Origin: a virus
Taxonomy: Duplodnaviria > Caudoviricetes
Virus record (IMG/VR): IMGVR_UViG_3300022752_000032
Span: 39,450 to 103,449 of that record
DNA: 64,000 nucleotides
Reading direction: 5' to 3' (one strand)
Below the pieces are notes generated by a model. It saw nothing but the letters and a program-made list of their open reading frames with translations. It was not told the origin of the DNA and did not search any database. This document shows positions 25,382 to 60,623 of the stretch, piece after piece; positions within the stretch are counted from its first letter, which is position 1, and each line of letters starts with the position of its first letter. The position numbers and the translations under genes were made by a program.

Positions 25382-25429
25382 CATTAGTTCTTATAGTGTG
25401 ATTTTCTTTTTTTGTACTGTTTTTACCGA

Positions 25430-30622: not shown

Positions 30623-30639
30623 CTTAAACTCCGTCTCTT

Positions 30640-30924: not shown

Positions 30925-30926
30925 AA

Positions 30927-31709
30927 CTACTCCTTTGCCTTAGAGTCATCAATTGGACCACCTGCAACCCAAGCGTTACAAGTCCTGGAAGCGGCGCATT
31001 TAAAATCAAATGCTTCGCAGTAACCAAGTTCAGCAGCATCTACAGCGTCCCAAGCGTTATCTTTACTTGATCCACCTTGCTCAATGCCTTGAGCAATGCA
31101 GTCTTTCATTTTAGTAGTTGTAATAAACATTACGCAGTTTCCGCAACGTGACTTTTTTGCTTCATCTATTGTTATAGACCAGCGTGTTGATTTTTCTTGC
31201 CAAAACTCTTCATTTGGTTCTGCTGGATTTAGTGGACCATAAGCAGCATCTTTAATTGCCTTCTCGCGGTTGGCAAGATTGATGGAGATATCTTGTGTTG
31301 CAGGAGGACAAGCATCTGTTGCAGCAGCAGCAGCAGTTACGGGTTCTACTGATTGATTTTCATTTCTTATTTCTAATGAATCTTGAGTATCACTAGTCTC
31401 GTCAATAACTGCCTGCTCAATTGTGTCATAAGGCTCTGATACATCAAAAGGCATAACAGAGACTCGACTCATATTTTCTGAAGCAAGTACTGCCCAGTCT
31501 GTTGGAGTTGTAGGTAATTCTAAATTAGAAGCAGTGTATAAATCTTTTGCCATATCAATTCTTTCTTGAGTAAGGCCATATAAGTCCACAACTTCTTGCG
31601 GTGCAGCAAAAGCAACATCAGTATTAGAAGCAACAATGGAGAATATATGATCTCCGTCTTGAATAGGCAGGTCAGAGTTTATGTATGCTCTAAATATTTC
31701 TATAGCCAT
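30927..31709 (-). CDS. Two-domain head-module protein with C-terminal Cys-rich domain
   Basis: CPPATQD...YGPLNP...RCGNC...GYCEAFDFKCAASRTCNAW after a VTAAAAA linker. Confidence 0.75.
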   Translation of the reverse strand: MAIEIFRAYINSDLPIQDGDHIFSIVASNTDVAFAAPQEVVDLYGLTQERIDMAKDLYTASNLELPTTPTDWAVLASENMSRVSVMPFDVSEPYDTIEQAVIDETSDTQDSLEIRNENQSVEPVTAAAAATDACPPATQDISINLANREKAIKDAAYGPLNPAEPNEEFWQEKSTRWSITIDEAKKSRCGNCVMFITTTKMKDCIAQGIEQGGSSKDNAWDAVDAAELGYCEAFDFKCAASRTCNAWVAGGPIDDSKAKE

Positions 31710-31718
31710 TTTTATCTC

Positions 31719-37700: not shown

Positions 37701-37982
37701 AAAATCACTTTTATTATGTTTAGCAAGTGATATGTACTTATTAAGTTCTTTCATTGCTAAGTGCTCGCGGAGAGATAGTGGCAATCCTTTGCTCTCTTCT
37801 AGAGAGCGCATAACTACAGAAAAAGCAGCTTTTTTAGTAATCTTTCTTGCAGTAGATGTTGAAAAGTTAGCATTATCTACAACTGACAAAACTTTATCTC
37901 TTAAATCTACTGCTTGCTTAATAGCAACAGCACGACGACCTTCAGGAGTGATGGCATAACTAATTCTTCTTATTCTACTCAT
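31719..37982 (-). CDS. Giant polyvalent protein with WYL-like, HTH and C-terminal HipA/PI3-PI4-kinase-like domains
   Basis: 2087 aa; kinase motifs YFK, AEYISSKIAQSLG, NTDRHVQNF, PIDHG; WYL-like IAFLYNGTERLVLP...RTFTLSKI; HTH GESLQDIADATG. Confidence 0.75.
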   Translation of the reverse strand: MSRIRRISYAITPEGRRAVAIKQAVDLRDKVLSVVDNANFSTSTARKITKKAAFSVVMRSLEESKGLPLSLREHLAMKELNKYISLAKHNKSDFFYATNTDLLPISHPRSTREHSMTASALRIARSRWFAADPRITDERAKAVLASAFESIPGSVEHLYYTSILLSLPQGMIPGEALIAASDGNSFESRSARARRQRRDRKGRFAYEGGGIRALIRRLDGNVFSLSGRVVANAKNSKDVEVEFPDGKIAEINPAKGEYIKAVLPTPDGYSPEPIIPSVTDEVINEKDLVFLDAPNGWEKDEKYKEFGDKVERYVDSNKEFVVFVSKQDDGTKDYQILNAKSAEQIGVVKTWADVQDKLEGNEDKLLNPKANLPFRQGLIPAEDRPGPNAYEKLMAEKKDKENALANRKAELKKNADDRVDALDRTVPEGWDIEEKNNALMLRRATEPADLENVYKQDNFVARVVEQGEISVKDVNNLLEDKVYQNWAYVDKDKDARATEYAQKAREEIKNFAPAYGYKEEDLNKIDAMSADEIASFFLDEKLQPEGFASALDDYMNSAMVDAPSKQQEEKWKSFGQKLKIINDAGDFPGNNKKKADLPKQPDAPVETKGGFEFNYPPGAYKIKQGSAYDPQGRVDEDSPDFTDDPIELAQKQDERDILVALEQAVSPGENGENALGVGALPFAKGDEFVPAEALFFALEEAGIDAPMELAKIYDKKLGADNNEKALNDFRKKAEIISGNTPELAESFKKVTEQNPDLEPPTQEPKFDAKEMDLIPLPPLLEGLSQKELDQFNETKDHIPYLPKNEEIQMPEGYNPLSPEPFAAWKDVTAENPDAILPEGFSDNPVFLAQEISTNDLLKELRRSVEPGNEVPGAAVIALPTDDGEDFVANVPGEAVRDALQLKGIDTNAELRKIAEEGLVGQVEDVADVNIPADDAIRLIVDGDVPLETQIKDAIAAKQKIAFLYNGTERLVLPVEVFENPRNSNVNVRAIDANGDRRTFTLSKIENSKEGSPVAVEITDKEIFDRRMAGESLQDIADATGIPREEIRAREAKYARENPEAKPEAVVGDYKPTADQIDKLQKGVAEMDWLDNGIMFLKPDDGGPRAEAPIEIYDDNGLPEDGPFAKIDSDGNFEWKDQAAYDKYADRLKEIIDADLVGIGDNQDNQQPQEINNVPVEQAKLDDNQEPKDKTYVEENPEVIKVNAFVEANAGRLAPTKARDVKIGDFLWNNFNKVYEEILDIQPAPFGRVRFLIKDPRNQKEYFRFFDRRSPIRNMRRLGTGEVPEDFRVPSEENKGDGPKRGRALRQPLEQRVEVVAGRDVGGFAYREGFYKDKNGIVLKPGDRVRHGNAKKNEMYGEGVVVVRAGDQIDEAKKVGGIGRNGKVYKDYVWVQVPGEDGPRLWKSRMIVKQADGAGPARVAPEARDVAPDAPKVEVPKAEPIAEKIPDAADMNEELVQKELKRVRVKYFPKARDYAANDEVRNAGKKLDELVNRLNAGEKIEDLSTSPLDSAIRKLRRVRDLENNPNALVLADYVENFKKEIEKYKNEKDKARRAEFEKILNEPIPDDLIPADVNGLDEEKIKEAIKVISIKLPKWNERGANRKASEAAYYLDSFAREIDQGQVIEGIDPSDLLRVSTYLKNSGDARYEALGDKIDQLNELIKQKQAANQKPFAKANMEFIDPVAEAEKRVNNKDNEFNASNKLRSAFASDEIYQQNSYLDPHKEQLKEFFALEGGASLAKLDQKARQALAQYASQEIRNPEGMQGADEAETEKNINEIATLVKALHDEKMVYSPNRSNIGPADALLNVDPTKILNFGKALNSGVRKKLVIDGNDTGFDIQRVSQGINSGSNFRLIHRQSGQVVYFKREKTEGTANAEYISSKIAQSLGIAGAAYVQKHPNDSRTVIITNAGDGIDFKNKPVLFDEFPGKSSTETIAKRASLADVVGLAVLDAVIYNTDRHVQNFLAGVVDNKGVDKNGYEEIQLLPIDHGYAQLLNGGGSRSVTDPFTHMKGRDARSGGEINRAVAKQIGATAYKELIDMTAQQAIQALKRMYGSDISKETLDEVISRLEALRGISKEKWRTGLAGRN

Positions 37983-39142
37983 GATTGATCCTCCTCTTCT
38001 AGTACTGGAAGCAAATCTGCATCTAAACTACCTTTTCCTAGTGAAGCAAGAAGTGATGCTCTTAAGAATGGATCTTCTCCATTTTTAACTGCTCTTAACC
38101 AACTTGCTCTAATTGCAGGCTCTGCTTCATATCCATAACCTAGATACTCAGTCATAGCAAAAATTGCATCTTCTACAGTTTCATAATCTTCTTTGTTCTT
38201 TAGTAGAACATTTAACTCTTGATCTATTACGTACTCATCTAATTCATCTTTTACTTCAGTTAGATTTTTACTGCCTTCTACATTAACAACTCCGTCAGGT
38301 ATTACGGCAAATCTACATTTTCCTGTTGGCTCAACTGGGAGAGCAATGATTTTACAATTCGAACCCCCAGCATATAGAACGCAATTGGCGCAAGTAACAC
38401 CAATAGAAGCAACTTCATTTTCCGCTGGCGGCGTGTAGCCTGCCCAAATACCTTCTTCGTCTTCATTAAATTTTCCATACTTCTGCGAGATCTCAATCAA
38501 TGCATTTGCTAAATCTTGTTCTTCAGGAACTAAACCTGCTGCAGTAATAGAGTTTGATTTTTTAGTGCTACGAGGATGAGAAGATGGTAGCAAATCATTG
38601 TCTGACTTATAAGCAGCATTTGTTGGTCTGCCAGACTTAAGTAGTTTTAGAAAAGCATTTACTCTTCCCATTGCCCACTGATTACGGTTCATACCAGGAC
38701 GATGAGAAACAGAAAATGCTCCAGCGCCACGACGATAAACTGCTTTTAACATACCTAAAGTTGCTCTTCTTCCTTTAGGACTTTTCTCGTTATGATTAGA
38801 GACTTTCTCTTTAAGAGAGTTCTCTACTGCTTTAGAAAAAACAACTTTACGAGAACCTGATGCAGATCCTTTTTTATTTTTACTAGAACCCTTAACTTGA
38901 TCTTTCTTAGGAGCAGGAGTCTGAGAAATTGTTCTTTTATTTTTTGCTGCAAACTCTGAATCATCTGAAGCATCGATAGGAACGCAGTTGGGTACCATAT
39001 TTCCATTCTTACCTTTTTTCATTCCAACCTGCTTATAACCATCCCAACATGGACCTTTACCAGCAGCAGAAATACCTGAAAAAGGGATGTAGTCCCTATT
39101 TTCATCTTTTACCCAATCTAATGGATTAATCTGCTTTGACAT
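37979..39142 (-). CDS. Multidomain head-module protein
   Basis: PCWDGYKQVGMK...VPNCVP motif, LKAVYRRGAGA...QWAMGRVNAF domain, CANC...C...CRF cluster. Confidence 0.75.
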   Translation of the reverse strand: MSKQINPLDWVKDENRDYIPFSGISAAGKGPCWDGYKQVGMKKGKNGNMVPNCVPIDASDDSEFAAKNKRTISQTPAPKKDQVKGSSKNKKGSASGSRKVVFSKAVENSLKEKVSNHNEKSPKGRRATLGMLKAVYRRGAGAFSVSHRPGMNRNQWAMGRVNAFLKLLKSGRPTNAAYKSDNDLLPSSHPRSTKKSNSITAAGLVPEEQDLANALIEISQKYGKFNEDEEGIWAGYTPPAENEVASIGVTCANCVLYAGGSNCKIIALPVEPTGKCRFAVIPDGVVNVEGSKNLTEVKDELDEYVIDQELNVLLKNKEDYETVEDAIFAMTEYLGYGYEAEPAIRASWLRAVKNGEDPFLRASLLASLGKGSLDADLLPVLEEEDQS

Positions 39143-39145
39143 TTA

Positions 39146-39601
39146 TTACATTCCTTGATTAGTGGTTGCTTTTAATTGCCAATCCCATTTGGCATGCATA
39201 TCAATACGCTCTGCAATAAAGTTTGCAATACCTTGCTCATTTGCTTGGTTTGCTATATCAAATGCTTTTCTTAAATCGTTAAGCATTACAGCATTATAGA
39301 TAAGAATGTCTCTAGCAAGATCTAAACACATATAACCTACATCTGTGTCTTCAATGTTTGACATACGAGCAAACTCAACTAATCGATATGGAGATATGGC
39401 TCCAAGTTTTCTTATGTTTTCAGCAAAAGGATCTATAGATCCATCAATGTCTTCATATATTTCACCAAAGAACTCATGAAACTCTGGGAAGTCAGATCCC
39501 ATAACATTCCAGTGCGCTCCTTGCACTTTATGAGAAAGTACTACAGCATCACTAAGACCAACTGCTAGAGCATTAACTAGTTCTGGTTTTTCTACGTTCA
39601 T
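39146..39601 (-). CDS. dps: Dps family ferritin-like protein
   Basis: HWNVMGSDFPEFHEFF...IDPFAENIRKLG...HAKWDWQL Dps signature. Confidence 0.92.
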   Translation of the reverse strand: MNVEKPELVNALAVGLSDAVVLSHKVQGAHWNVMGSDFPEFHEFFGEIYEDIDGSIDPFAENIRKLGAISPYRLVEFARMSNIEDTDVGYMCLDLARDILIYNAVMLNDLRKAFDIANQANEQGIANFIAERIDMHAKWDWQLKATTNQGM

Positions 39602-41325
39602 TGTGTAACTCCTTGTTGCTCAGTGGGGGGTTGTGTTGCTTGTTGTAAAACTTGTTCTACCTCTGGTGGCAGAGGAGCAACAGAATTTTCTTGCTGTGTA
39701 TCTCTAACTGCATTCATCATTTCTGGAGCAACAGTGTTCAACATTGCTTCTGTTAACTCTGGACCAATTGAGCCCTTCTCGGAAAGCATACGGATAGCAA
39801 GTTCATTCGGTGTTGGCGCATCCATAGATGAGAATCCATGAGCACGTCTCCATGAGTCGTAAGAAATAGCACCACGATCAAATCCTGAGTCAGCATCGGC
39901 TGCTTTATCATTTCTAGTAGCAACTGCTGAAGGGTCATACCAAACAACAATTCGATCTACCTCTGATTCAGTAAATCCTTGTGCCTTAAGGTATGGACGT
40001 AAGTAAACAACTGTTAAAGCATCAGCAATTAATAGCATTAATGGTTCGATATGTGCCTTATATAGTGACTCATCGATTTGAAGTGCATTTGAATACTTAA
40101 CGTTTGCTAGACCAGTAACAACATCCTTAGGAACATCTAGTCCTTGAAGGATTCGCTCTAACACTCTGTCGGCGCGAGAAGCAAGTGCTGGATCAAATGA
40201 ACGCTCAAACTTAAATTGTTTAATCTTGTCGCCAAGTTCGGCAGGACCGCGAATAATAAGTGGAACTACTGCGCTAGCAGACTCCTCATCACGAATAGGA
40301 GTTGTCATAGCGTCAATTAATTGTTCTTCAAACTCATCCTCTGCTTCTTCTGCAGTAAATCCTGGGTTTGCTTCGCTATCTGTGTCATATGGATAATCTG
40401 GGTCGCCACCTGCTGCAACTGACAAGCCGTCTGGTAAATAAAGTGCACCAGCGTTTAGACGTGAACGTGCTGTAGCACGGAATGTTCTATTAAGAAGTAA
40501 AAGTTCTGCGCAAAGATCTAGTAAGCCACGAAGAGATGAATCTGCTTCATCTGAGTAACGAGGATGTGAACGCCAAATGCGTCCTACAAATGCACTCTTA
40601 GAAAGTTTATTATTGGCTGTCATATTTCCACCAATACTTTGTTCTCTACGACCAACAACATTAAATCCACCACGAGTGTCAGTCATAATCTCATCTACGG
40701 ATTTAATATCCCAAGACTCTGGAATTCCTGAACCAGCACGTTCTGGCATTTGAACTAAGTAACATTCACCAGCAACTGAAATGTTTAATGCAGCATCGCG
40801 AAGAAGTCCTGCTTGTCCACCGTACGCGGAATCTAAACGAGCAAGTGCTCGCTCGGCTGCCGCTGCTAAACGTGGATCAATAACACTAGATAGCGCAACT
40901 GGTGCTGGTGCTTCTGCAGCGTTGTCAACAGCAGCAGCGTAAATACGAATACGAGAAACAACGGAGGCAACTAAGTTAAATGCGTATTTGATTTCTCCGA
41001 TGGCATCATAATATTCCCACGCTTCGGATTGCCATGCGCTAGATCCAGCAGAGCGACGTTGTTTGAATTGTTCAAACTCGCCTTTATCATTAATTTTAAT
41101 TTGTACTGCAGCAGCAGTTAAAGTTCTAGGTGTTGAGTAGGAAACTGATTGAGCATTAGAGGAAATAAATATTCCAGCAGCGCCTGTAAGTTTTGGTTTA
41201 ATGTTTCTAACTATCTGAGTTGAACGAGTAGTAGACTTTTTTCTTTTTCTAATTTTCTTTGGAGCAATTTCAGACGCAACAATAGGGGTAGGCTCTATCG
41301 GCTCTTGGTGTTTAAAAACACTCAC
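39598..41325 (-). CDS. Portal protein
   Basis: Start reassigned to GTG 41325 behind GAGGAG; WQSEAWEYYDAIGE, VAGECYL, RIWRSHPR, SRLNAGAL, VVPLII motifs. Confidence 0.85.
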   Translation of the reverse strand: MSVFKHQEPIEPTPIVASEIAPKKIRKRKKSTTRSTQIVRNIKPKLTGAAGIFISSNAQSVSYSTPRTLTAAAVQIKINDKGEFEQFKQRRSAGSSAWQSEAWEYYDAIGEIKYAFNLVASVVSRIRIYAAAVDNAAEAPAPVALSSVIDPRLAAAAERALARLDSAYGGQAGLLRDAALNISVAGECYLVQMPERAGSGIPESWDIKSVDEIMTDTRGGFNVVGRREQSIGGNMTANNKLSKSAFVGRIWRSHPRYSDEADSSLRGLLDLCAELLLLNRTFRATARSRLNAGALYLPDGLSVAAGGDPDYPYDTDSEANPGFTAEEAEDEFEEQLIDAMTTPIRDEESASAVVPLIIRGPAELGDKIKQFKFERSFDPALASRADRVLERILQGLDVPKDVVTGLANVKYSNALQIDESLYKAHIEPLMLLIADALTVVYLRPYLKAQGFTESEVDRIVVWYDPSAVATRNDKAADADSGFDRGAISYDSWRRAHGFSSMDAPTPNELAIRMLSEKGSIGPELTEAMLNTVAPEMMNAVRDTQQENSVAPLPPEVEQVLQQATQPPTEQQGVTQ

Positions 41326-41365
41326 CCTTGAAACTCCTCGTCTCTGTGGCGGAGTAGAAGAACTA

Positions 41366-41656
41366 TCACTTTTCTTCATACGCAGCCAACAAACCAGCAA
41401 TAGCAGAGATTGCTAGAACAACCTCTACTGGATGTACTACATTAGGGATAATGATACGTGATATTTCAAGTAGTGATGCGACCCAAATTGCAGTACACCA
41501 CATACAGGTAAATAGATAACCAAACTTAGATCTCTCTGGAGGAAACTTTTTCCAAATTGCATTTCTTAATTTAGAGAATATCTCGTCTTTAACAATAAGC
41601 CTTGCTATTCTATAGGTCGCAAGACCAGCCACTGATAACTCAAATAAGTTATCCAT
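41366..41656 (-). CDS. DUF1360-like membrane protein
   Basis: LATYRIARLIVKDEIF...LFTCMWCTAIW, hydrophobic; usual position before portal. Confidence 0.75.
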   Translation of the reverse strand: MDNLFELSVAGLATYRIARLIVKDEIFSKLRNAIWKKFPPERSKFGYLFTCMWCTAIWVASLLEISRIIIPNVVHPVEVVLAISAIAGLLAAYEEK

Positions 41657-42016
41657 TTACTCTTCCCCTCCAACAGTAATTATTGACCCGTATGGGTTCC
41701 AAGACCTAAGCCTAGAGCCACATCCGCAGTTATCGTCTTTAGTAAATGCAATAAGTTTTCCAGACTCGGTGGTAACCCTATGGACTCTATCTATTTTGCT
41801 ATGAGAAACATAAGTTTCATTGAAGACTACATTGGCTCCTGTAGGGGTATCTACAGCAATTAAGAGTTTATTATTCAGCAAGATTGCTCTACATCTATCT
41901 ACATGCCTAGTGCCTGCAGGAGATGCGCCCTTAGGTAGAAGTTCATTTATATCCTCTAAAGATCCTGGTAAGGCTAAGGCGACCATCGCTGGAAATACAT
42001 CAGCTACCACGTTCAC
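41657..42016 (-). CDS. Hypothetical protein
   Basis: DVFPA...CGCGSRL motifs; coupled ORF. Confidence 0.7.
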   Translation of the reverse strand: MNVVADVFPAMVALALPGSLEDINELLPKGASPAGTRHVDRCRAILLNNKLLIAVDTPTGANVVFNETYVSHSKIDRVHRVTTESGKLIAFTKDDNCGCGSRLRSWNPYGSIITVGGEE

Positions 42017-42360
42017 ACAACCTCCTTATACTCGGAAGGTATGTGAAAATCTTCCCAGCCGAAATATGATTTAGCGATTGTTAGAGGTACTAGAAGAGGT
42101 TTTTCTCTGGAAGCACCTTTAGGAGTTAACCATACATCTATGTCCTCTACTTTAACTACAACGGGGCATAGAGCCCAGACTTTATTTTTCTTAAGAAGAT
42201 TTAATGGAAAAGCAATTGGATTAGGAGATTCCTTGGAAGTAATTGTTTCTAGACGTCTAGCGTTTGGTCTAGCACCTTGCTTCTCTGGGTTTAGCCATAT
42301 GGCAACAACTAGGTCTTTATCTAAGTATGTTCCAGAAGAGTTCTTATATGTTTTAGCCAT
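42013..42360 (-). CDS. Hypothetical protein
   Basis: 115-aa ORF overlapping both neighbours by a few bases. Confidence 0.65.
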   Translation of the reverse strand: MAKTYKNSSGTYLDKDLVVAIWLNPEKQGARPNARRLETITSKESPNPIAFPLNLLKKNKVWALCPVVVKVEDIDVWLTPKGASREKPLLVPLTIAKSYFGWEDFHIPSEYKEVV

Positions 42361-42853
42361 TGCTTATTCTTCTAGCCATGGCTCGATATGTAACGCCAGC
42401 GGATTCAGCGATAGCGGCGGTTGAAACTCCTTGATTATGCAGACTCCTTGCAAGTTCAGTTAAAGCAACATTTGCTAAGGCTGGTTCACTATTTGCTGCG
42501 CTCTTTGATCTATAGCGTCTAGAAAGGCTAGAAAGGTGTTTTAAACGTGCTCTAATCTCAGGAGGTACACCAAGAGATATAGAACGAAGTCTAGGCGTAT
42601 CAGCAATAGGGGAAAGAACCGTTAAAGACTTGGATGGAGTTTCTGGGATAGGTTTTATTTGTTCCTGCTGAGTAGCATTTTTAACCCAGAAATGAACAGT
42701 TGATTTTGGTCTAGGCGGAGTAAAAGACTCAGCGATAATCCCAAGTGACCAGCCTGCTTCCCAGAGGGAGCGAAGGCGAGCAGTAAAGGCATCTTGGGAA
42801 AGAGAGAGTAAAAACTTAATCTCTTCTTTAGGTAGTTTTGGTTTGTTTTTCAC
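42353..42853 (-). CDS. Double helix-turn-helix DNA-binding protein
   Basis: GWSLGIIAES...KSTVHFWV and GVSTAAIAESAGVTYRAMARRI. Confidence 0.75.
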   Translation of the reverse strand: MKNKPKLPKEEIKFLLSLSQDAFTARLRSLWEAGWSLGIIAESFTPPRPKSTVHFWVKNATQQEQIKPIPETPSKSLTVLSPIADTPRLRSISLGVPPEIRARLKHLSSLSRRYRSKSAANSEPALANVALTELARSLHNQGVSTAAIAESAGVTYRAMARRISNG

Positions 42854-43320
42854 TCCTTTATTTTACATTGTTTTTAAATGTCGTACAGGAAGAGGGCATT
42901 GCTTATTGGACGAAAAGACAAAAATATGAAGGTTTCCATTATTTGCTTTTGGCCTGTGAGAAGGCTCTGCATGCATTTCGACATTTTCTAAATCGTTTCC
43001 GGAAAGTTTTTTAATGACACTAGGCTTTTTTACTTTTTTAGGTTTTAAGGCAAGAAATACTTTTATTTTTTATATCTATGTTTAGTATTGTTCTATAGGT
43101 ATAGGCTTGTAGTCAAGGTTGAGTCAAGGTGGATCAAGTTTGGTTAGCCTAGATATATCAGGGCTTAGATGTTTCACAACTAAAAAAATTGTTCTAATGT
43201 TGAATGCACCAAAGCCAATGTTTATGGTTTGACTGCTCTTGCCTTTAAGTCTAACTATCAACCTTTACTCTAGATATTCTTAGAATATTTGCCTGATTAA
43301 GACACGCCTATATTAGATAC

Positions 43321-43349
43321 TTGACAACTAAAAATATGTGTAATATCTT
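43321..43349 (+). promoter_or_regulatory. Sigma-A-like promoter
   Basis: TTGACA-17-TATCTT upstream of the only plus-strand gene; GACACGCC at 43301. Confidence 0.65.
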
Positions 43350-43396
43350 TATGCTTATAAGCACAAGGGGTGCTTAGGAATACGAAAGGGAAACAA

Positions 43397-43618
43397 ATGA
43401 CACAACATGGAGTGAGTATCACAACAGAAGGACACCACTACAACTTTGTAGTAGATACCACCGCACAGGTTAGAGAATTACTACTTGACACCACCGCACC
43501 CATCTCTGAGGTTATTGTTATGGAGGAAGGCTACGGCAAGGAAGCCCGTATGCTAAACGCTGAGGAAATCTTGGCTATTGTTCTCAATCACCCAAAAACA
43601 GCCTTATCTCTAGCCTAA
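43397..43618 (+). CDS. Hypothetical protein (only clear plus-strand gene)
   Basis: GAAAGGG RBS, own promoter and terminator. Confidence 0.7.
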   Translation: MTQHGVSITTEGHHYNFVVDTTAQVRELLLDTTAPISEVIVMEEGYGKEARMLNAEEILAIVLNHPKTALSLA

Positions 43619-45032: not shown

Positions 45033-45054
45033 CTAAATATCCCCCTTTAGGTCA

Positions 45055-46571: not shown

Positions 46572-47102
46572 TTAGTTTCTCCAAGCCTCAACGCTTGCCT
46601 CTTTAAGCCACTTCTCAAAGCGACCATTAAATAGGGCGTGCTTGCTTCTCTTGGTTCTAATCAAGTTAATGGCTTCATCTGCCGTATAACCTTCACGAAT
46701 AAGAACTAGAGCCATGATTAAACCTGAGCGGTTCATACCTGCTTGGCAACGAATTAAGACACGCTGACCACGCTTCCAATCCTCATGTGCCATGCGAACA
46801 ATTCCTTGTAGGTCATTTGGGTCAAAGTCTGCCATGTCGCTGTCATAAAATCCGAAACGGATTTCTTTGACAAACCAATCAACAGGATTAGCCCAAGCGT
46901 ATGCCGTAATTACCAAATCAAAATCCTTCTTAGTAATTGCTGGAGTTGCTAGTTGGTCGTGTATGTCATCATCATCAGTTCCACCCTGCCATAAGCCGGG
47001 AAGAACCTCTGACCATAACTCTTTTGGATAGTCAATCGTATAAGAGCGTGGTGCTATTTTTGTTTCTAATAGTTCTATTGCTTCATCTTGTAAAGAAAAC
47101 AT
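46572..47102 (-). CDS. Dual-specificity/tyrosine protein phosphatase
   Basis: EVLPGLWQG, VLIRCQAGMNRS (CX5R), AINLIRTKR. Confidence 0.9.
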   Translation of the reverse strand: MFSLQDEAIELLETKIAPRSYTIDYPKELWSEVLPGLWQGGTDDDDIHDQLATPAITKKDFDLVITAYAWANPVDWFVKEIRFGFYDSDMADFDPNDLQGIVRMAHEDWKRGQRVLIRCQAGMNRSGLIMALVLIREGYTADEAINLIRTKRSKHALFNGRFEKWLKEASVEAWRN

Positions 47103-47139
47103 TTAGTTCCCCCCTTTCTTTTTGTATTTTAGTAAATAA

Positions 47140-47316: not shown

Positions 47317-47347
47317 TGAGTCCCCCTTTCTCCTACCTTGTTTCGTA

Positions 47348-47737: not shown

Positions 47738-48045
47738 TAGTTCCCCTCGTATTCTTCATGTTCACCCTGTCCTATTAGGATTTCGAAGCCAGCGTTTGGA
47801 TCTATGTGGTTAGTAGTAACCGCTTGAATAAATCTAAGCCCGCAAGAATTTGAATACCAGTTTTGCAAGGTTGTTAGCATTTCTTCAGGTGTGCAATATG
47901 TGCTTCTAATTAGTGGGTCATACTCGTAGCCACGCATTGTTTCTACCTGCTCATCGTCCATTAGCAAGTAAATCTTGTGGCAACTATCCCAAGCGATAGC
48001 CTTAGCATCGCCAACTCTTTCTTTTACTAGGTCGAAGTTCGCCAT
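47737..48045 (-). CDS. Hypothetical protein
   Basis: IAWDSCHKIY...SCGLRFI; GAGGGGG RBS. Confidence 0.7.
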   Translation of the reverse strand: MANFDLVKERVGDAKAIAWDSCHKIYLLMDDEQVETMRGYEYDPLIRSTYCTPEEMLTTLQNWYSNSCGLRFIQAVTTNHIDPNAGFEILIGQGEHEEYEGN

Positions 48046-48182
48046 TTTATTTCCCCCTCTTTCAATACAGATACTATCATGTTAATAAGTTGTTGGCAAG
48101 TATGTTGCTCTGGTGTTTCTTCCTAGCAAAAAGTAAAAAAATATATCTTCAGGTGTCAGTTGAGTCAGATCGAAACAACTTT

Positions 48183-48755
48183 TTAAGATCCGAAGTGCTG
48201 TACCGCAATATTGATCGGCAGCCCTGTGCTTGGATCTAACTTGGCAGCGATAGTTATTGCTTGTCTAATAACATTCTTGGCTGTGCCTAAGGTTTTCTTT
48301 TTGCTGTCTAGGCTTGCCAGCATTGCTCCCATTGCGTATCCACCACCAGAACCTATGGCATATACGCCTGTTTCATCATGTGCCCAAGAATAGTCATCAC
48401 CAATTTCGTAGATAGTTCCATTAACCGCAACCATTACTTGAGAGTCATGCTCTCCATCTTTGCTGTAAGAGTTTTCCTCGAAGCAGTGTTTCATATCTTG
48501 GATAAAGACTGAGGAGATAAACTTGTCTAACTTTGCCCCGTAAAGGTTTGGATTTATGGCAGGTGGCTTAAAAACATGTGTAAGTATGTTAATGGCACGC
48601 ATATCTCCAGCCGCGCCAATTAAGTATGGACCGTTTCTATTTACTTTTCCATTGTCTTTAGGCAGCGTATAGATCTTGCTATTGTCTTCAGTCAGTCTTG
48701 CGTCATACCCTATGGCAGCCCAGTTCTCTCCCTGTATCGCTGCAATAGTTGTCAT
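48183..48755 (-). CDS. Ntn-hydrolase, proteasome-beta/HslV-like peptidase
   Basis: N-terminal MTTIAA nucleophile, LIGAAGD, YAIGSGGGYAMG. Confidence 0.85.
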   Translation of the reverse strand: MTTIAAIQGENWAAIGYDARLTEDNSKIYTLPKDNGKVNRNGPYLIGAAGDMRAINILTHVFKPPAINPNLYGAKLDKFISSVFIQDMKHCFEENSYSKDGEHDSQVMVAVNGTIYEIGDDYSWAHDETGVYAIGSGGGYAMGAMLASLDSKKKTLGTAKNVIRQAITIAAKLDPSTGLPINIAVQHFGS

Positions 48756-48787
48756 AGTCTTTTCCCCAATTGTTTTTTACTTTTTGC

Positions 48788-49033
48788 TTAGTCTAAAAAC
48801 CCGTCCCACAAGTCTTCTCTAAGTTTTTCATACTTATCTCCGTGATATCCATTGTTTCTTGCAGAAATATCTTCATCTCTAAGTAGAGAGTCTAGCGAAA
48901 GAACAGCAGTAAAGTCCCTCTCGTCAAACATGATAACAATTTTTGTATCTCCATCAGCGGGATCATCAACAAGGGCGGCAATAAAGGGAACGGCAGAACC
49001 ATTTGAGTGGTAATACTTATCTACAATCTCCAT
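48788..49033 (-). CDS. Hypothetical acidic protein
   Basis: 81-aa ORF. Confidence 0.6.
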   Translation of the reverse strand: MEIVDKYYHSNGSAVPFIAALVDDPADGDTKIVIMFDERDFTAVLSLDSLLRDEDISARNNGYHGDKYEKLREDLWDGFLD

Positions 49034-49084
49034 GGTTAAAAAATACCCTACTCTCGAAAGGGTGATTTTGTTGGATTAAACACC

Positions 49085-49183
49085 AAACCCCCCAGATCGG
49101 TGGGGGGTCGGCGGAGCAAGAAGGGGTGTTTTCTGCTCTCAACTCGGGACGGAAAAGGGGATTAACCGCTACCCAAGGTGAGA
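49085..49183 (-). ncRNA. Candidate small RNA with C-rich loops (6C-like)
   Basis: Two hairpins with loops TTAATCCCCTTTT and AACACCCC, then terminator-like ACCCCCCA/TGGGGGGTTT; G-U pairs favour the minus strand; TAAACT -10 at 49187-49192. Confidence 0.55.
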
Positions 49184-49227
49184 ATTAGTTTAGCCTGATT
49201 TTTTACTTTTTATTTGCTCAGGTGCTC

Positions 49228-49575
49228 TTAAATCTTATCAACTATGGATATAGGGACTACGGCATTGGCAGAGTAAATCTCCCCCTTCGAGTTTGTTCTA
49301 GCGAACCTACCTTTAGGTTTATCAAAAGTAATAGTGATTTTACTTCTCCTAATAGCAACCACAGTTCCCTCATCTCCTATCAAAGACTTAGTTCCGCAAC
49401 TACTATTTAGAACAATCCTATCTCCAACTACAAAATCCTTTATATCCGCATCTGCCCTCACGATACTTAATCGCTCCTCTATAAGTTTTTTAAGGGGAAC
49501 TAGTTGTTTGTCTAGTTCTCCTCTAGAAACGGCATTACAGGTTTCATCAAACAAGTCTATGGAAGTCTTAATCAT
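49228..49575 (-). CDS. Hypothetical SH3/KOW-like protein
   Basis: FVVGDRIV...GTVV pattern. Confidence 0.65.
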   Translation of the reverse strand: MIKTSIDLFDETCNAVSRGELDKQLVPLKKLIEERLSIVRADADIKDFVVGDRIVLNSSCGTKSLIGDEGTVVAIRRSKITITFDKPKGRFARTNSKGEIYSANAVVPISIVDKI

Positions 49576-49816
49576 CTTTTATTTTCATCTCCTCTTCTAA
49601 CATCACTTTTAAGATTTCTAATTTTATTATGTGATACCTGCTTCTCTTCTTGTCAAAGTTGTCCGCAATCAAAAATTCTGTGTGATACTTAATCATTTCA
49701 AGTATCCTTTCTTTCTTAGAAAGTTTTCCAAATCTGTCGTATTCGTCTTTAGCAGGTCTTGTTAATTGTGCCTTTGTTTGCGACCTTATTGATATGCTTT
49801 GTTTTGTTTCGCTCAT
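49568..49816 (-). CDS. Hypothetical protein
   Basis: Coupled ORF. Confidence 0.6.
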   Translation of the reverse strand: MSETKQSISIRSQTKAQLTRPAKDEYDRFGKLSKKERILEMIKYHTEFLIADNFDKKRSRYHIIKLEILKVMLEEEMKIKDD

Positions 49817-50034
49817 ACTTCTACCCCTTCTTCATCTACAACCCCAATACTATTAGCAACTGACGCTACATCAAAGCCGTAGTATTCGTTCATGAATACA
49901 GACGCAACACGAACCGCAAAGTCATTATCTACTTCGCCCTCATTTCTTAGTTTCTCATCTAAGACTACAGTAGTCATTAGCGTAAAAAAATCACCAACAA
50001 ACATTACTGTTCGGCTTGGAAGTATGTTATCCAT
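49813..50034 (-). CDS. Hypothetical protein
   Basis: Coupled ORF. Confidence 0.6.
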   Translation of the reverse strand: MDNILPSRTVMFVGDFFTLMTTVVLDEKLRNEGEVDNDFAVRVASVFMNEYYGFDVASVANSIGVVDEEGVEV

Positions 50035-50194
50035 CTATTCCCTTTTCATAGTCAATCAAAGCCTTGAGTTGTTTCTCAGTTATCACACTAGTTAATCTAC
50101 CAACTAGATACTCAACAGCGTTCTTTCCGTAGTTATCTCTTACCAACTTAGCAAGAGTATCTACTGTGTATTCCAACTCTACTTCTTTAATCAT
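50027..50194 (-). CDS. 55-aa hypothetical protein
   Basis: Manual ORF MIKEVELEYTVDTLAKL...; fills the gap. Confidence 0.6.
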   Translation of the reverse strand: MIKEVELEYTVDTLAKLVRDNYGKNAVEYLVGRLTSVITEKQLKALIDYEKGIDG

Positions 50195-50199
50195 AGTTA

Positions 50200-50412
50200 T
50201 TACACCCTTTCCTTAACTGTCTGATAAATCATGTCGTAAGAATTTGTTAGACATGGAATTACAGACTCATACTCGTTAGCAACTTCAGCAAATACTTTAT
50301 CCGAAACCTCAAAGTGTTCGCCAATATAATACTGATAGATAACAGGCGAGTCTAAATTCTCTACCTTCATCAAGTTGTCAATCAACTCTCTAACTGTAAT
50401 GTGCCCAGCCAT
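50200..50412 (-). CDS. Hypothetical protein
   Basis: ITVRELIDNL...DSPV N-terminus common in small phage proteins. Confidence 0.65.
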   Translation of the reverse strand: MAGHITVRELIDNLMKVENLDSPVIYQYYIGEHFEVSDKVFAEVANEYESVIPCLTNSYDMIYQTVKERV

Positions 50413-50414
50413 GA

Positions 50415-50666
50415 TTACTCCTGCTCTCTTAAATGTTCAGCAATTGTTTCGGGGTCAGCCCCAGCGGTGATAAGCACCTTGCGCCAAAGGTTAGCAACTC
50501 CAATTTTGGTATCCATTAGAAAGAATAATTTATCCATAGAAGTATCCTTTTTATTTTTCCAGCCATCTATATCAGAGCCAAGCATTTCTAATAGCAATGC
50601 CAAACCCATATTTACGAAGCCCGCTTCCTCTTCGTTTAACTTTAGTTCTAATACCTCAGAGTTCAT
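50415..50666 (-). CDS. Hypothetical protein
   Basis: AAAAGGGG RBS and upstream promoter. Confidence 0.65.
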   Translation of the reverse strand: MNSEVLELKLNEEEAGFVNMGLALLLEMLGSDIDGWKNKKDTSMDKLFFLMDTKIGVANLWRKVLITAGADPETIAEHLREQE

Positions 50667-50733
50667 TTGTTTCCCCTTTCCCTGATATCCGTATTATTAC
50701 ATACTTTAGTCAATAAGTCAAACTACCTAATAA

Positions 50734-52883: not shown

Positions 52884-52972
52884 TTTTCCCCTTTTCTTAC
52901 TGTTGATCTAATAATATCAGTTTAAAATAAAAAGTCAAGCAGCAACAACCACCTGATTTTTACTTTTTGCTT

Positions 52973-53879: not shown

Positions 53880-53928
53880 TTTTTACTTTTTCCCCTTTCG
53901 CTTTAAATATATTATTTCATAATAGTCT

Positions 53929-54381: not shown

Positions 54382-54471
54382 ATTTTTTACTTTTTGCTTT
54401 CGCCGCTGCCGCAAATAACTAGCAGAGTGAAACCCCAAAGGGGTGGAAGGAGTTCCACTCGTTCTTTTTGG

Positions 54472-56247
54472 TTAAGCACTTTCACGCTCACCAATTCTTG
54501 TCATAACTGCTTGCGCTGACCTGCCAATAACTTCGGCAGTTTCAGCAGGTTGATTTATATTTAGAACAATCTCGGCGTAATCTCCACCAATATCTTTCGC
54601 ACTTCTGCCTTCATCAAAGGGCAACCATAAAACCGCAACGCCTGACGCTTTACATTTTTCCATAACTTCTCTTGCTCTTTTGTTTTCCTCAGGAGTGTAT
54701 TCGCCGTCAGAAACAATTACTAGAAGTCTTGCGCCAGTTCCGTGAAGTAAGTTTAGTGAGCCGTCTAGTGCTTGGAAGGCTTTCTGAAACTTTTCAGTTC
54801 CGTCCGAAGCAGAATAAACATTTACTTTACTTAATCTTTGTCCAGCAGATAAAGTTGGGAATACATCATTTCCGTAATAAACCATAGCGCAGTTTCCCTG
54901 AATACGATTTACTGCTTCACTCATTACCCACGCAGTTGTAGCCATTGGGTTCATAGCACTTCCCATAGAACCTGAAATATCAACCATTACACCAACATTA
55001 AGAGTTGGTTCGTCTGTGTGTTTGCGAACTGTTCTACGGAAAGGTTTTGCTTGTGCCATTTGTCCTCTAGCACGATAAGCAGTATTTTGGACAATAGCAC
55101 GAGAGCGAAGTCGTCCGGGTGGAACGGAACTAGAAACTTGTAATTCATCTCTCTCACGATACTTGGCTTTTTCTAACGCTTCACCAATAATTAAAGAAGC
55201 ACGCAATTCCTCAAAGGTAGGTTCTCTACTCTCAATTAAAGTGCTGTTAGTATCTGATTGACCCGGACCTGAACTCTTACTGAATACTTTCTGAGCCACC
55301 ACTTCATTTTCTTTCTGCTCATTAGCGTCAGAAGCCTTAGCCTTAACTTCCTCTTTCCAATCCTCAGATTGTTCTTGCTCGGCAAGTTCGCCAAAGTTAT
55401 TTAGTTCTACTGAACCACTTGCTTCTCCAAGTGCGCCCATGATTGCTTTAAGAAGTTCTTTAGGCATTTTCATACCTTCACCAGCGTTTTCATCTCCACG
55501 CTCTTTAGCAGTATCACGAACAATCTTTGCCCACTCTTTTGCTAGTGGATAAAGTTCTGTTGCGTCCCTGTGGTTATCATGAAGTTGTGCTTTACGAACT
55601 ACTTCTCTTAATTTAGAAATAACATCAAGACCAAGTTGCTTCTCAATAATTGTAGTTACATCTTTTACTTCATGTTCATCTAAGATACCAGCGTCAATAC
55701 GAGCATGAACAAGTCCAACAAGATTAGTTAGCGATTGCGTTTGTGTTTCATTTTCCATATCTTTTGTATCACCAATAACAATTTCCATAGCGCAAGAGCG
55801 AAGGAAGGCACGAGCCTTTGGATTAGCAACAACACCCTGATACTCAATACGACTTTCCTCTAATAAAATTAAGGCTTTGTATTCATCTTTTTCTAATTCC
55901 TCATACGCTTTAGGCATAGACCAACCTGAGAAGCGAGCATGAAAGGCTTCATGAATAATTGCGCCAGTTGCTTTAGGAAACTCATACTGAGTAGAGCGAT
56001 TAGAAATATCACCAATCTCTAGTGGAGTAACTCCTTTTCCGAAAGCGACATCAACATTTACTTCTACTTCTGCTGTCATTGGGTTGTAACACGCAGGCGC
56101 AGAGCCACCAGCACCCGGACCAACATAAGCAACCAAGTCCTCACGAAGCGACCATTTGTTTGCTAACTGCCCAACATCTCTACCAATCCCTAACCACTCT
56201 TTAGGTGTGGCTTCGGCACGAGTTTCACTCATTTTTATATGAGCCAT
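54472..56247 (-). CDS. HExxH metallopeptidase-like plus VWA domain protein (CobT-like MoxR partner)
   Basis: HEAFH, LEESRIE, MIDAS VDISGSM, IVSDG. Confidence 0.85.
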   Translation of the reverse strand: MAHIKMSETRAEATPKEWLGIGRDVGQLANKWSLREDLVAYVGPGAGGSAPACYNPMTAEVEVNVDVAFGKGVTPLEIGDISNRSTQYEFPKATGAIIHEAFHARFSGWSMPKAYEELEKDEYKALILLEESRIEYQGVVANPKARAFLRSCAMEIVIGDTKDMENETQTQSLTNLVGLVHARIDAGILDEHEVKDVTTIIEKQLGLDVISKLREVVRKAQLHDNHRDATELYPLAKEWAKIVRDTAKERGDENAGEGMKMPKELLKAIMGALGEASGSVELNNFGELAEQEQSEDWKEEVKAKASDANEQKENEVVAQKVFSKSSGPGQSDTNSTLIESREPTFEELRASLIIGEALEKAKYRERDELQVSSSVPPGRLRSRAIVQNTAYRARGQMAQAKPFRRTVRKHTDEPTLNVGVMVDISGSMGSAMNPMATTAWVMSEAVNRIQGNCAMVYYGNDVFPTLSAGQRLSKVNVYSASDGTEKFQKAFQALDGSLNLLHGTGARLLVIVSDGEYTPEENKRAREVMEKCKASGVAVLWLPFDEGRSAKDIGGDYAEIVLNINQPAETAEVIGRSAQAVMTRIGERESA

Positions 56248-56369
56248 TTTTACTACCCCCTTTGTTAATCTAATTATTGCATACTAGGTATTTATTGTCA
56301 AGTTAATAGGGGAGAGCGAGTTTCACCTAGAGAAACACGCTCTCGACCCTACCCAGCCAATCTAATAAA

Positions 56370-57422
56370 TTAGATTTTGGCAGGCTTTGCTTCTACCCCA
56401 TACGCTCGGGTTAGAACATCTGCGACTACTGCCCTATCGTCAGTTGGGGCTGACGCAATCATGTTGGCAATAGCAAACTCAGTTCCGAAAGTTGTTGCTA
56501 TATCACGAAAGGCGAGAAGTTCTCGCATTTGTGGCGACCAACTTATTCTTTCTTTATTCAGAACTTTGCGATACAAGTTTTGTGCGCAAGTTACCATTTG
56601 TGTTGGCACTCCTAAACTGCGAGCCAAGTTCCAATCAGTTGTCATTTCTGCTTGGACAACAAAGCGAGATAGTAATGCTTCGCTAAGTCTTACACCCGGA
56701 GCCTTTGGATTAGTTGCGGCAACTACATAAAAATCAGGGTGAGATTTTACTGTTCCTCTTTCAGGATTAGCAGTAATTGTTATCTCTCTTTTTCCGTCCA
56801 TAAGATTGTAAATAACTGAAAGAACCTTAGGGTCAATCAGACCAATCTCATCTATGAAATAAACTTCCCCATTTTCTGCTGACTTAACTAGGTCGCCATC
56901 AACCCACTCAAAGTTTCCACTTGGAGTTTGGACATAAGAACCAATTAGGTCGGCAACTTCTACATCACCATTTCCAAGTAGTGTGCGAACACCTTCGCCA
57001 AAAGAAGCCTCAACCAGCGCAGTTTTACCTGTTCCGGGAACTCCATAAAGCATGGCGAACATTGGTTGTCCAACACCAGTTAGAACTGATTGCTTTGTTG
57101 CTTCTCTTGCTTTGCGTAAAACTTCTACATCTTTGTTTTGACCCCATATACGAGCATGGTAGGCAGAACCATTAGGACGCAAGTAAATACTTTCGCCACC
57201 CAAAGCCTCAACACTCACGAGAGCGTCTGCCTTTGTTTTGCGTGCTTTTCTGTCAGAGCCAATCGCTCTCTCAACATAGCGTCCTTGCGGAAGCACATTG
57301 GTAGATAATTGCTTTGACGCATTTTCATTTACTCCTTGCGTTGCTACATCTATAATCATTTCCCAATAAGTCGGTGAAAGATTAGGACTTAGTTCTTTGT
57401 ATTTCTCTTTTAGAGTAGTCAT
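56370..57422 (-). CDS. MoxR/CobS-like AAA+ ATPase
   Basis: GVPGTGKT, FIDEI, AATNP, EALLSRF. Confidence 0.9.
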   Translation of the reverse strand: MTTLKEKYKELSPNLSPTYWEMIIDVATQGVNENASKQLSTNVLPQGRYVERAIGSDRKARKTKADALVSVEALGGESIYLRPNGSAYHARIWGQNKDVEVLRKAREATKQSVLTGVGQPMFAMLYGVPGTGKTALVEASFGEGVRTLLGNGDVEVADLIGSYVQTPSGNFEWVDGDLVKSAENGEVYFIDEIGLIDPKVLSVIYNLMDGKREITITANPERGTVKSHPDFYVVAATNPKAPGVRLSEALLSRFVVQAEMTTDWNLARSLGVPTQMVTCAQNLYRKVLNKERISWSPQMRELLAFRDIATTFGTEFAIANMIASAPTDDRAVVADVLTRAYGVEAKPAKI

Positions 57423-57440
57423 AGTTTATCCCCTTTCCCC

Positions 57441-58341: not shown

Positions 58342-58383
58342 TTTATTTCCCCTTTTCTTTAGGCTTGATAGAACTTTATCAAA

Positions 58384-60117: not shown

Positions 60118-60273
60118 TTATTGCCCCTTTTCTGTCGTAGAAACTACATCAAAGTTTGAATATATTTCATCTATAGAGTTCTCTAAAGAATCTATAAATA
60201 GGCTTAGTTGATTGTCATCTAACTTAGCGACCATGTCTTGTGTAATGGTATGTTGCCAAATTGCTTGACTCAT
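60118..60273 (-). CDS. 51-aa hypothetical protein
   Basis: Manual ORF MSQAIWQHTIT...; GAGGAG RBS. Confidence 0.6.
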   Translation of the reverse strand: MSQAIWQHTITQDMVAKLDDNQLSLFIDSLENSIDEIYSNFDVVSTTEKGQ

Positions 60274-60584: not shown

Positions 60585-60623
60585 TTGGCTACCCCTTTCT
60601 AGTTATCTTTATCTTAACAGTTT

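Follow-up and report, generated by a model that had tools for sequence, protein, structure and literature searches.

Introduction

Among the Firmicutes, RsaE and RoxS are small RNAs (sRNAs) with C-rich or UCCC motifs, and in phage T4 a group of early mRNAs is translationally repressed by the RegA protein, which acts on their initiation regions. Excerpts of the work on the 6C RNA of mycobacteria describe C-rich apical loops that pair with G-rich ribosome sites, such as the AGGGGGG of panD, in a chaperone-free manner that needs neither Hfq nor ProQ; 6C has many G-rich targets, dnaB included, and growth stops upon its overexpression (PMC6486639). The same excerpts carry the hypothesis that C-rich stem-loops serve as alternative terminators (PMC6486639). 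In phages P1 and P7, as summarized in a 2025 review of phage small RNAs, the c4 antisense RNA blocks the translation of a phage mRNA through loops that pair with it around the ribosome-binding site (PMC12197685). In that review the terms 'Actinobacteria' and 'mycobacteriophage' occur 0 times and no actinophage small RNA was found by term, and a search of the literature on phage small RNAs with C-rich or Shine–Dalgarno terms returned, at the level of titles, nothing closer than c4. Here we analysed a 64,000-nt stretch of virus DNA (the window), bases 39450–103449 of a single 103,449-bp contig (IMG/VR record IMGVR_UViG_3300022752_000032), and found on its minus strand, at 49077–49181, a conserved, structured, strand-specific and uncatalogued RNA element. 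This element, the small RNA in what follows, exposes a C-rich loop and may damp the translation of the phage's own genes that have GGGG ribosome sites. Its parts are as follows.

49077–49181, minus strand: small RNA, matched by the covariance model R1 at 109.5 bits (E = 9e-21)
49187–49192, minus strand: -10 hexamer TAAACT, at a position conserved across three sequence groups
49143–49177, minus strand: hairpin 1, with loop UUAAUCCCCUUUU at 49153–49165, complementary to AAAAGGGGAUUAA
49114–49138, minus strand: hairpin 2, with loop AACACCCC at 49123–49130
49081–49113, minus strand: hairpin 3, with a long stem CGCCGACCCCCC/GGGGGGUUUGGUG, terminator-like in the scan and followed only by UUU

Comparison with described systems

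A reading of the locus made from the sequence alone (the sequence-only reading) had cited the pairing of C-rich 6C loops with G-rich ribosome sites as established, and this precedent is indeed in print (PMC6486639, excerpts). Like 6C (B11, RF01066), the small RNA belongs to the actinobacterial world and carries C-runs in apical loops, and while the last hairpin of 6C doubles as a terminator, hairpin 3 of the phage RNA is terminator-like. However, 6C has two hairpins with 6–7 C per loop, whereas the phage RNA has three, with 4–6 C and then UU in loop 1 (CCCCUUU) and ACCC in loop 2; 6C resides in high-GC Gram-positive chromosomes, whereas all members of the phage RNA lie on phage contigs, and the candidate targets of the latter are the phage's own genes. 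The Rfam 6C model (gathering score 47 bits), suggested by the sequence-only reading as a check, gave no match at E ≤ 10 in 48900–49400 of the window or in the sequences L251, L008, L010 and L022, and the same model found 6C at 54 bits in an actinobacterial genome. Membership of 6C was therefore rejected on three grounds, namely the missing Rfam match, the different architecture and loop words, and the restriction to phages among the genomes searched.

Rfam 15 holds no family for the small RNA. At gathering thresholds the whole window gave 0 matches, and at E ≤ 10 the interval 48900–49400 gave only LhrC (17.8 bits) and a snoRNA near the element; the matches on L008 and L022 lay away from the element and far below threshold. 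LhrC (RF00616) of Listeria also presents CU-rich loops on hairpins, and the alignment sets GCGGUUAAUCCCCUUUUCCG against its terminator loop, but its phylum and architecture differ from those of the phage RNA, and we rejected it since a score of 17.8 bits (E = 4.5) is at chance level where the gathering threshold is 110 bits. The c4 RNA resembles the small RNA in being phage-encoded and in having loop sequences directed at a phage ribosome site. It differs in that c4 acts on one operon only, ant, and governs the immunity of a temperate coliphage, whereas the site word complementary to the phage RNA is common to many genes and nothing points to a role in immunity. RegA, for its part, is a protein, whereas the repressor proposed here would be an RNA that recognizes its sites by base pairing.

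Conservation and structure of the small RNA

The portal protein of the phage is 77% identical to that of Actinomycetia phage DSL-LC01, with Microbacterium, Arthrobacter and Gordonia phages as more distant matches, and the DSL-LC01 genome was reportedly assembled from lake water (PMC10611076); because of these resemblances the phage of the window is assigned to the freshwater actinophages. Comparison of window positions 48000–50500 with 50,697 phage records gave no blastn match. Relatives were gathered first by searching with the HslV-like peptidase encoded downstream of the element, which led to 13 IMG/VR loci. In the seven closest of these the intergenic gap is 93–99% identical, the adjoining 115-aa protein being just 82% identical in several. 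At the distant loci, where the HslV-like protein is 66–71% identical, the gap gave no blastn match; read directly, these loci turned out to have a homologue of the element in the corresponding position, its stems being altered. A degenerate pattern derived from the shared part was scanned over IMG/VR, metagenome and bacterial/archaeal genome collections, and the matches were scored with R1, which separates cleanly (members 68–118 bits, all else ≤20 bits). Members made up 16 of the 19 pattern matches in IMG/VR and at least 21 among the 116 pattern matches listed for metagenomes, at least three of the latter being the same records as IMG/VR contigs. None of the 102 pattern matches in bacterial/archaeal genomes was a member, and R1 matched nothing in a sample of 151 genomes of the class to which a Microbacteriaceae genome belongs, nor anywhere in the whole DSL-LC01 genome; in its own 103-kb phage genome the small RNA is present in a single copy. 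The family thus comprises, among the matches listed, ~35 related freshwater phage contigs in three sequence groups and is confined, among the collections searched, to one clade of putative freshwater actinophage contigs.

The 103-nt RNA (49179–49077), whose 5' end is predicted at ~49179–49180 and whose 3' end is predicted after hairpin 3, folds into the three hairpins at -42.8 kcal/mol (z = -3.9, equalled by 1 of 200 shuffles), compared with z = -0.5 for the opposite strand. Representatives of all three groups, each folded separately, adopt this three-hairpin structure (z between -3.9 and -7.2), and in each group the sense strand folds better than its opposite. We counted pairs over 22 distinct sequences aligned to R1, a structure-fitted alignment that inflates the figures somewhat: 94.4% of the cells form standard pairs, and 11 of 27 pairs show changes on both sides, 6, 1 and 4 in helices 1, 2 and 3, respectively (6 of 10 pairs in hairpin 1, 4 of 11 in hairpin 3, and in hairpin 2 an A-U to G-C change in 6 sequences). 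None of 500 shuffles came up to the real alignment in pairing or in covariation score, and sliding the partners by 1–3 columns lowered the pairing to 40–53%. The independent folds and an initial MAFFT/RNAalifold alignment, in which 8 of 22 pairs carry double changes, both agree with the R1 pair counts. G-U pairs are kept throughout, one of them, in hairpin 3, in 22 of 22 sequences; these pairs, together with the better sense-strand folds, identify the gene-sense strand as the RNA strand.

Outside the stems, conservation is found at the 5' ACCU, in the CCCC(C)UU of loop 1, in the linker UGAGA immediately 5' of hairpin 2 and in the ACCC of loop 2, and within hairpin 3 in the stretches GCUCCGCC(A/G)AC and GU(U/C)GGUGU. 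The loop 1 core CCCCUU is invariant in all 22 sequences. Its unpaired probability is 0.80 in this phage and 0.76–1.0 in 21 of the 22 sequences, the exception being cut at its 5' end. Two other readings of the element were rejected. A TTG/ATG frame that runs through it (41 aa here, 49017–49142) is not coding, as the peptides are unrelated and differ in length between groups, and the changes are compensatory in the stems rather than synonymous. An intrinsic terminator and nothing else would not account for three consecutive hairpins with invariant loop motifs, the third of which has no U tract in groups 2 and 3.

These results bear out most of what had been read from the letters. A minus-strand unit with a TAAACT -10, two stem-loops and a terminator-like hairpin is present with every listed element in its place, and both the covariation among related phages and the conservation of the loops, on which the idea had been made to depend, were found. 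The outer TCTCA/TGAGA pairing of the first stem is present in this phage, but it is not kept in the two other groups and falls at the predicted 5' end of the RNA or upstream of it.

GGGG ribosome sites and their complementarity to loop 1

Open reading frames (ORFs) were called with a script of our own, which gave 147, and the early block was defined as the minus strand from window position 44000 onward. Between -20 and -4, GGGG precedes 16 of the 44 early-block ORFs, with GGAG/GAGG only in 9 and neither in 19, whereas elsewhere GGGG precedes 6 of 103 ORFs, with GGAG/GAGG only in 44 and neither in 53 (Fisher p = 8e-6; 1.5e-6 for ORFs of at least 50 aa). GGGG ribosome sites are therefore concentrated in the early-type block and the contrast with the other genes is real, although the earlier statement that early genes 'mostly' use AAAGGGG was too strong with GGGG at 16 of 44. 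The word AAAGGGG itself occurs 15 times in the whole genome, 12 times on the minus strand, and 11 of these 12 copies lie between 45048 and 60598, each 4–12 nt before a start codon. They comprise the eight sites named in the sequence-only reading and three more, before 47316, 56247 and 60113.

60592–60598, minus strand: AAAGGGG site of the ATG at 60584
60124–60130, minus strand: AAAGGGG site of the ATG at 60113
58349–58355, minus strand: AAAGGGG site of the ATG at 58341, within AAAAGGGGA, 9 nt complementary to loop 1
57430–57436, minus strand: AAAGGGG site of the ATG at 57422 (AAA ATPase gene), within AAAGGGGAU, 9 nt complementary to loop 1
56257–56263, minus strand: AAAGGGG site of the ATG at 56247 (gene of a 591-aa protein)
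53892–53898, minus strand: AAAGGGG site of the ATG at 53879
52888–52894, minus strand: AAAGGGG site of the ATG at 52883, within AAAAGGGGA, 9 nt complementary to loop 1
50673–50679, minus strand: AAAGGGG site of the ATG at 50666
47323–47329, minus strand: AAAGGGG site of the ATG at 47316
47111–47117, minus strand: AAAGGGG site of the ATG at 47102 (phosphatase-like gene)
45042–45048, minus strand: AAAGGGG site of the ATG at 45032 (36-aa ORF)

Perfect complementarity to loop 1 of at least 7 nt within -25 to +3 was found for 13 of the 44 early ORFs and for none of the 103 others; at thresholds of 8 and 9 nt the counts were 6 and 3 of 44, again against 0 of 103. The same word, (AG)AAAGGGG(G)AA, typically AGAAAGGGG(G)AA, serves the early-type genes on the contigs of groups 2 and 3. 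The 16S tail GGAUCACCUCCUUUCU, confirmed in a Microbacteriaceae genome, needs one G-U pair to match AAAGGGG, whereas loop 1 matches it by Watson–Crick pairs only; against AAAGGAG, loop 1 is expected to meet an A-C mismatch. On the predicted folds, the small RNA has a conserved single-stranded seed complementary to initiation regions, as trans-acting base-pairing sRNAs do.

Loops complementary to site words in other hairpins and phages

The window phage carries the anti-site word of loop 1 in one further hairpin.

54425–54460, minus strand: second hairpin with an anti-site word, right after the gene of the 591-aa protein, with a 12-pair stem and the loop UUCCACCCCUUU

Its loop UACCCCUUU, (U)ACCCCUUU, is kept in 7 relatives, in which the 3' arm varies and the stem is still paired. 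On the sense strand of the 22-kb early block CCCCTTT has two copies only, those of loop 1 and of this second hairpin. Group 3 has at the corresponding place a branched structure with the loops CCUUCCA and CCACCAC. Another C-rich loop of the early-type block, CCCUU, is found in a small intergenic hairpin, AAGCAC/GUGCUU, at 43355–43375 (minus strand).

Early genes of DSL-LC01 use a different stereotyped word, ACGAAAGGACAA, with at least 18 genes having GAAAGGAC and 1 of 67 having GGGG. The complement TTGTCCTTT has one plus-strand copy in 129 kb against 0.23 expected, and this copy is located in a 22-nt loop on a stem of ~16 bp, directly after the homologous gene. In the interval 24000–43400 of DSL-LC01 (L252), we also observed that the early genes share the near-invariant leader ACGACGAAAGGACAA(N)3-5ATG, with GAAAGGAC occurring 18 times on the plus strand and 0 times on the minus strand. 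We then ran five phage lineages through one pipeline, in which the commonest 7-mers before start codons were taken and their reverse complements sought in the loops of intergenic hairpins. For the window phage the top word was matched, AAAGGGG by CCCCUUU, in 2 loops. DSL-LC01 gave AAAGGACAA against UUGUCCUUU, for 2 of its 4 near-equally common words (19, 19, 18 and 18 genes), and Pumpernickel gave all of its top three words, GAGAAAGG against CCUUUCUC, in the loop UUCUUUUCUCCUUUCUC. Random words of the same length and loop composition matched a loop in 0.8–6% of trials (window phage 6%, DSL-LC01 1.5%, Pumpernickel 1.2%), figures that are indicative only since the idea was formed after DSL-LC01 had been seen. 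Apparently, a new and clear pattern is that unrelated hairpins in related phages carry predicted loops complementary to the phages' own site words, in 3 of the 5 lineages including the window phage.

Long-stemmed hairpins with mostly pyrimidine loops of 18–22 nt were located in DSL-LC01 (L252) at 30143–30200, in Pumpernickel (L266) at ~4270–4320 and in Zooman (L267) at ~12384–12434, and their loops complement the commonest early site words of their own phages, AAAGGACAA, GAGAAAGG and GGAAGGG, respectively. These hairpins are not homologous to one another or to the small RNA. A blastn search for conservation of the Pumpernickel hairpin matched only the two records of that phage itself. Several genes of Pumpernickel also have GATAGACT 6 nt upstream of their ATG or GTG.

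Proposed mechanism

We propose that the small RNA damps the translation of the phage's own GGGG-class genes, a reading to which we give a probability of roughly 45%, the argument for the function being complementarity. The host polymerase would transcribe the small RNA as a separate unit, a view favoured by the -10 hexamer kept exactly 7 nt before the 5' ACCU in all three groups, and the RNA would act in trans and with no chaperone, in the manner of 6C. Single-stranded UCCCCUUU(U) of loop 1 would pair with the (A)AAAGGGG(A) Shine–Dalgarno words of about one-third of the early-type ORFs. At GGGG sites this pairing would be Watson–Crick throughout, where the 16S tail CCUCCUUUCU needs a G-U pair, and at the GGAGG sites of virion genes the RNA would incur an A-C mismatch; for this reason, the accumulating RNA would mask GGGG-class sites from the 30S subunit and leave the GGAG class free. 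This proposed function is a plausible one, to which the loop/site pattern across lineages lends further strength.

Several observations weigh against this proposal. Any C-rich loop complements some Shine–Dalgarno site, and the seeds within the ribosome sites of the window phage are only 7–9 nt long. The sequence-only reading had envisaged an RNA switch that silences the early gene class; the conserved exposed C-rich loops, the -10 hexamer and the complementary GGGG sites are there, but no result points to a class switch by ribosome-site type. Fewer than a third of the early ORFs (13 of 44) qualify as targets, and both the gene calls and the 'early' label are rough. The gene of the small RNA sits within the very block to be silenced, which clouds the logic of timing. 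In groups 2a and 3, individual sites match the group's own loop 1 over as many as 12 nt, but the mean longest match was about the same for a group's own loop as for another group's loop (6.9 and 7.0 in group 1, 7.5 and 7.3 in group 2a, 8.0 and 7.9 in group 3). Co-evolution of loop 1 flanks with site flanks within the family was therefore rejected, the 12-nt matches are not a conserved feature, and only the core relation of CCCCUUU to AAAGGGG is conserved. The unpaired probability of the loop 2 motif falls to 0.50 in some group 1 variants. Of the remaining lineages in the pipeline, Zooman matched with its third-ranked word only (16-bp stem, 19-nt pyrimidine loop) and Mimi yielded no matching loop. 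As to transcription, no -35 element is recognizable upstream of the RNA, and a sigma-70 consensus promoter scan did not list its -10 site. Hairpin 3 is followed by just UUU in group 1 and lacks a U tract in groups 2 and 3, where transcription could thus run on into the genes downstream. Parts of the region are present in 5 RNA-library runs from 2 studies, and contigs from 4 of these runs (X2–X5) cover both flanks and not the element itself: those of X2 stop at 49187 and resume at 49063, and those of X5 stop at 49181 and resume at 49012. Such contigs cannot reveal transcript ends or levels, and this gap is uninformative either way.

Possible alternatives: host targets, a cis-acting module or a decoy

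The main targets could instead be host mRNAs, in which case the small RNA would be a phage-borne functional mimic of C-rich-loop regulators like 6C, shutting down host functions by pairing with G-rich 5' leaders of the host, with the fit to phage sites being secondary. The actinobacterial 6C RNAs that we examined also bear C-runs in their apical loops, the many G-rich targets of 6C and the growth arrest upon its overexpression (PMC6486639, excerpts) are in keeping with such a role, and the combination of an invariant core with loop flanks that do not follow the phage's own sites fits a target set outside the phage. However, any host targets would be hypothetical, and the small RNA is not homologous to 6C. 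Host targeting would also leave two results unexplained, namely the concentration of GGGG in the phage's early block and the match of the DSL-LC01 and Pumpernickel loops to their own site words, including bases that do not pair with the 16S tail. We consider it rather unlikely.

Less likely still, in our judgement, is that the element is a cis-acting module of a longer early transcript, placed between the 115-aa gene and those of the 81-aa and HslV-like proteins and working as a leader, insulator, terminator or antiterminator, with C-rich loops that act within the same molecule or merely stabilize the fold. The same neighbours are indeed kept: upstream stands the 115-aa gene in groups 1 and 3, and the genes that follow are, in every group, those of the 81-aa and HslV-like proteins. 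The lack of a U tract behind hairpin 3 in two of the groups (2 and 3) would suit such a module. The second CCCCUUU hairpin and the DSL-LC01 hairpin, moreover, start right after a stop codon and leave no room for a promoter, and C-rich stem-loops have been hypothesized to act as alternative terminators (PMC6486639, excerpts). Nevertheless, the hexamers TAAACT, TAAAGT and TAAAAT of the three groups each stand exactly 7 nt before ACCU at hairpin 1, in surrounding sequence that differs, a fixed spacing across three diverged groups. In groups 2 and 3, a near-consensus promoter (TTGACA/TTGACT, a spacer of 16–17 nt and a -10) directly follows hairpin 3 and serves the next gene, and in group 3 two additional genes separate the RNA from the 81-aa gene. 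Invariant loops on covarying stems are, finally, the pattern of a recognition motif and not of a mere terminator.

A role with no RNA–RNA pairing, in which the RNA would imitate the 3' tail of the 16S rRNA or act as a decoy for a protein that recognizes pyrimidine-rich single strands (S1 of the ribosome, Rho, or an enzyme of phage or host origin that cleaves or modifies the 16S tail), is improbable: the loop 1 of group 3 (UCCCCUUUCU) does differ from the 16S tail CCUCCUUUCU at only 2 of 10 places, the Pumpernickel loop contains CUCCUUUCU and the Zooman, DSL-LC01 and Pumpernickel hairpins are all long-stemmed with mostly pyrimidine loops of 18–22 nt, but no result points to a candidate protein, and the loop words follow the phage-specific part of the site words (GGGG, GGACAA) that the 16S tail does not match, which favours RNA–RNA pairing over tail imitation.

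Neighbouring genes and other features of the locus

The window has a G+C content of ~40%, nearly all of its long ORFs are on the minus strand, and according to ARAGORN it has neither tRNA nor tmRNA genes. The element occupies a 194-nt gap on the minus strand between the 115-aa ORF (49228–49575) upstream and the 81-aa ORF (48788–49033) downstream, the latter being followed by the HslV-like peptidase gene (48183–48755). Other genes of the early-type block encode a dual-specificity phosphatase-like protein (46572–47102), an AAA ATPase (56370–57422) and the 591-aa protein (54472–56247), in which a match to a VWA domain is weak and sub-threshold. The last two are homologous to a DSL-LC01 pair annotated as AAA ATPase and 'cobalamin biosynthesis protein', with 47% identity for the 591-aa protein. 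Two features flank the small RNA.

49199–49211, minus strand: repeat core AAAAAGTAAAAAA, separated by 6 nt from the -10 hexamer downstream
49038–49064, minus strand: extra hairpin ACCCU/AGGGU with a U6 tract, in group 1 only, adjoining the ATG at 49033

In the 8 group 1 sequences the stem of the extra hairpin is invariant and its loop variable. It overlaps a possible -10 (TATTTT, 49040–49045) of the downstream gene, which is putatively leaderless. The 81-aa gene has no Shine–Dalgarno site in any group, and the -10-like hexamers TATTTT, TAGTCT and TACCCT stand 6–7 nt before its ATG (window 49033–49045; L008 ~1990–2004; L010 ~1285–1301), suggesting that its mRNA is leaderless. One X2 contig ends at 49063 and runs into adapter letters, which may reflect a fragment terminating between hairpin 3 and the extra hairpin; it is a single record and was not used as evidence.

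The repeat-core variant that had been noticed upstream of the -10 hexamer is present at 49211–49199, within the loop of a weak CCUGA/UCAGG hairpin. The motif also stands 8 nt before the -10 in group 3 relatives and is absent from group 2, and the copy at the RNA gene is in a hairpin loop both here and in group 3. The repeat, (T)AGCAAAAAGTAAAAAA, is restricted to the early-type block (window 43026–63212), with 13 exact 13-mers on the minus strand (for example at 62856, 59558, 59527, 54395, 52411, 48785 and 47508) and a plus-strand copy at 48128; at no more than 2 mismatches there are 35 matches against 13.2 expected. Its copies mostly lie just after stop codons, with no common -10 hexamer downstream. 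A role of AAAAAGTAAAAA as a -30 box was rejected, as a -10-like hexamer lies 6–9 nt downstream only at the RNA gene and at none of the ~13 other copies; a regulator site or a promoter element are possibilities for the repeat. A 15-mer, TTCCGGAAACGATTT, is conserved in non-coding DNA (window ~42990–43010, minus strand; L007 65–80; L008 1700–1715; L010 1000–1015). It lies ~150 nt upstream of the RNA in group 2, and here 6 kb away, beside a copy of the AAAAAGTAAAAA repeat.

Implications for actinophage gene regulation

The proposed damping of GGGG-class genes could be one case of a wider arrangement, in which the actinophages of this clade use an RNA-based switch on translation classes, with loops complementary to their own site word outcompeting the 16S tail for the sites of that class only. 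The tag of the early-type genes would be a word particular to each phage (AAAGGGG in the window phage, AAAGGACAA in DSL-LC01 and GAGAAAGG in Pumpernickel), and the switch would be an RNA counterpart of T4 RegA that evolved repeatedly in non-homologous hairpins, loop and site word changing together. We regard this wider arrangement as doubtful, and as less probable than the damping itself. Should the damping of GGGG-class genes prove true, the small RNA would be the first phage RNA to regulate a whole class of the phage's own genes via a shared ribosome-site word, and the chaperone-free mechanism of C-rich loops and G-rich sites known from 6C would no longer be limited to bacterial chromosomes but would include viruses. 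An RNA combined with two alleles of the ribosome site could then serve as an orthogonal translation switch for Actinobacteria. For the phages themselves, such damping would explain the stereotyped, non-consensus Shine–Dalgarno words of their early-type genes.

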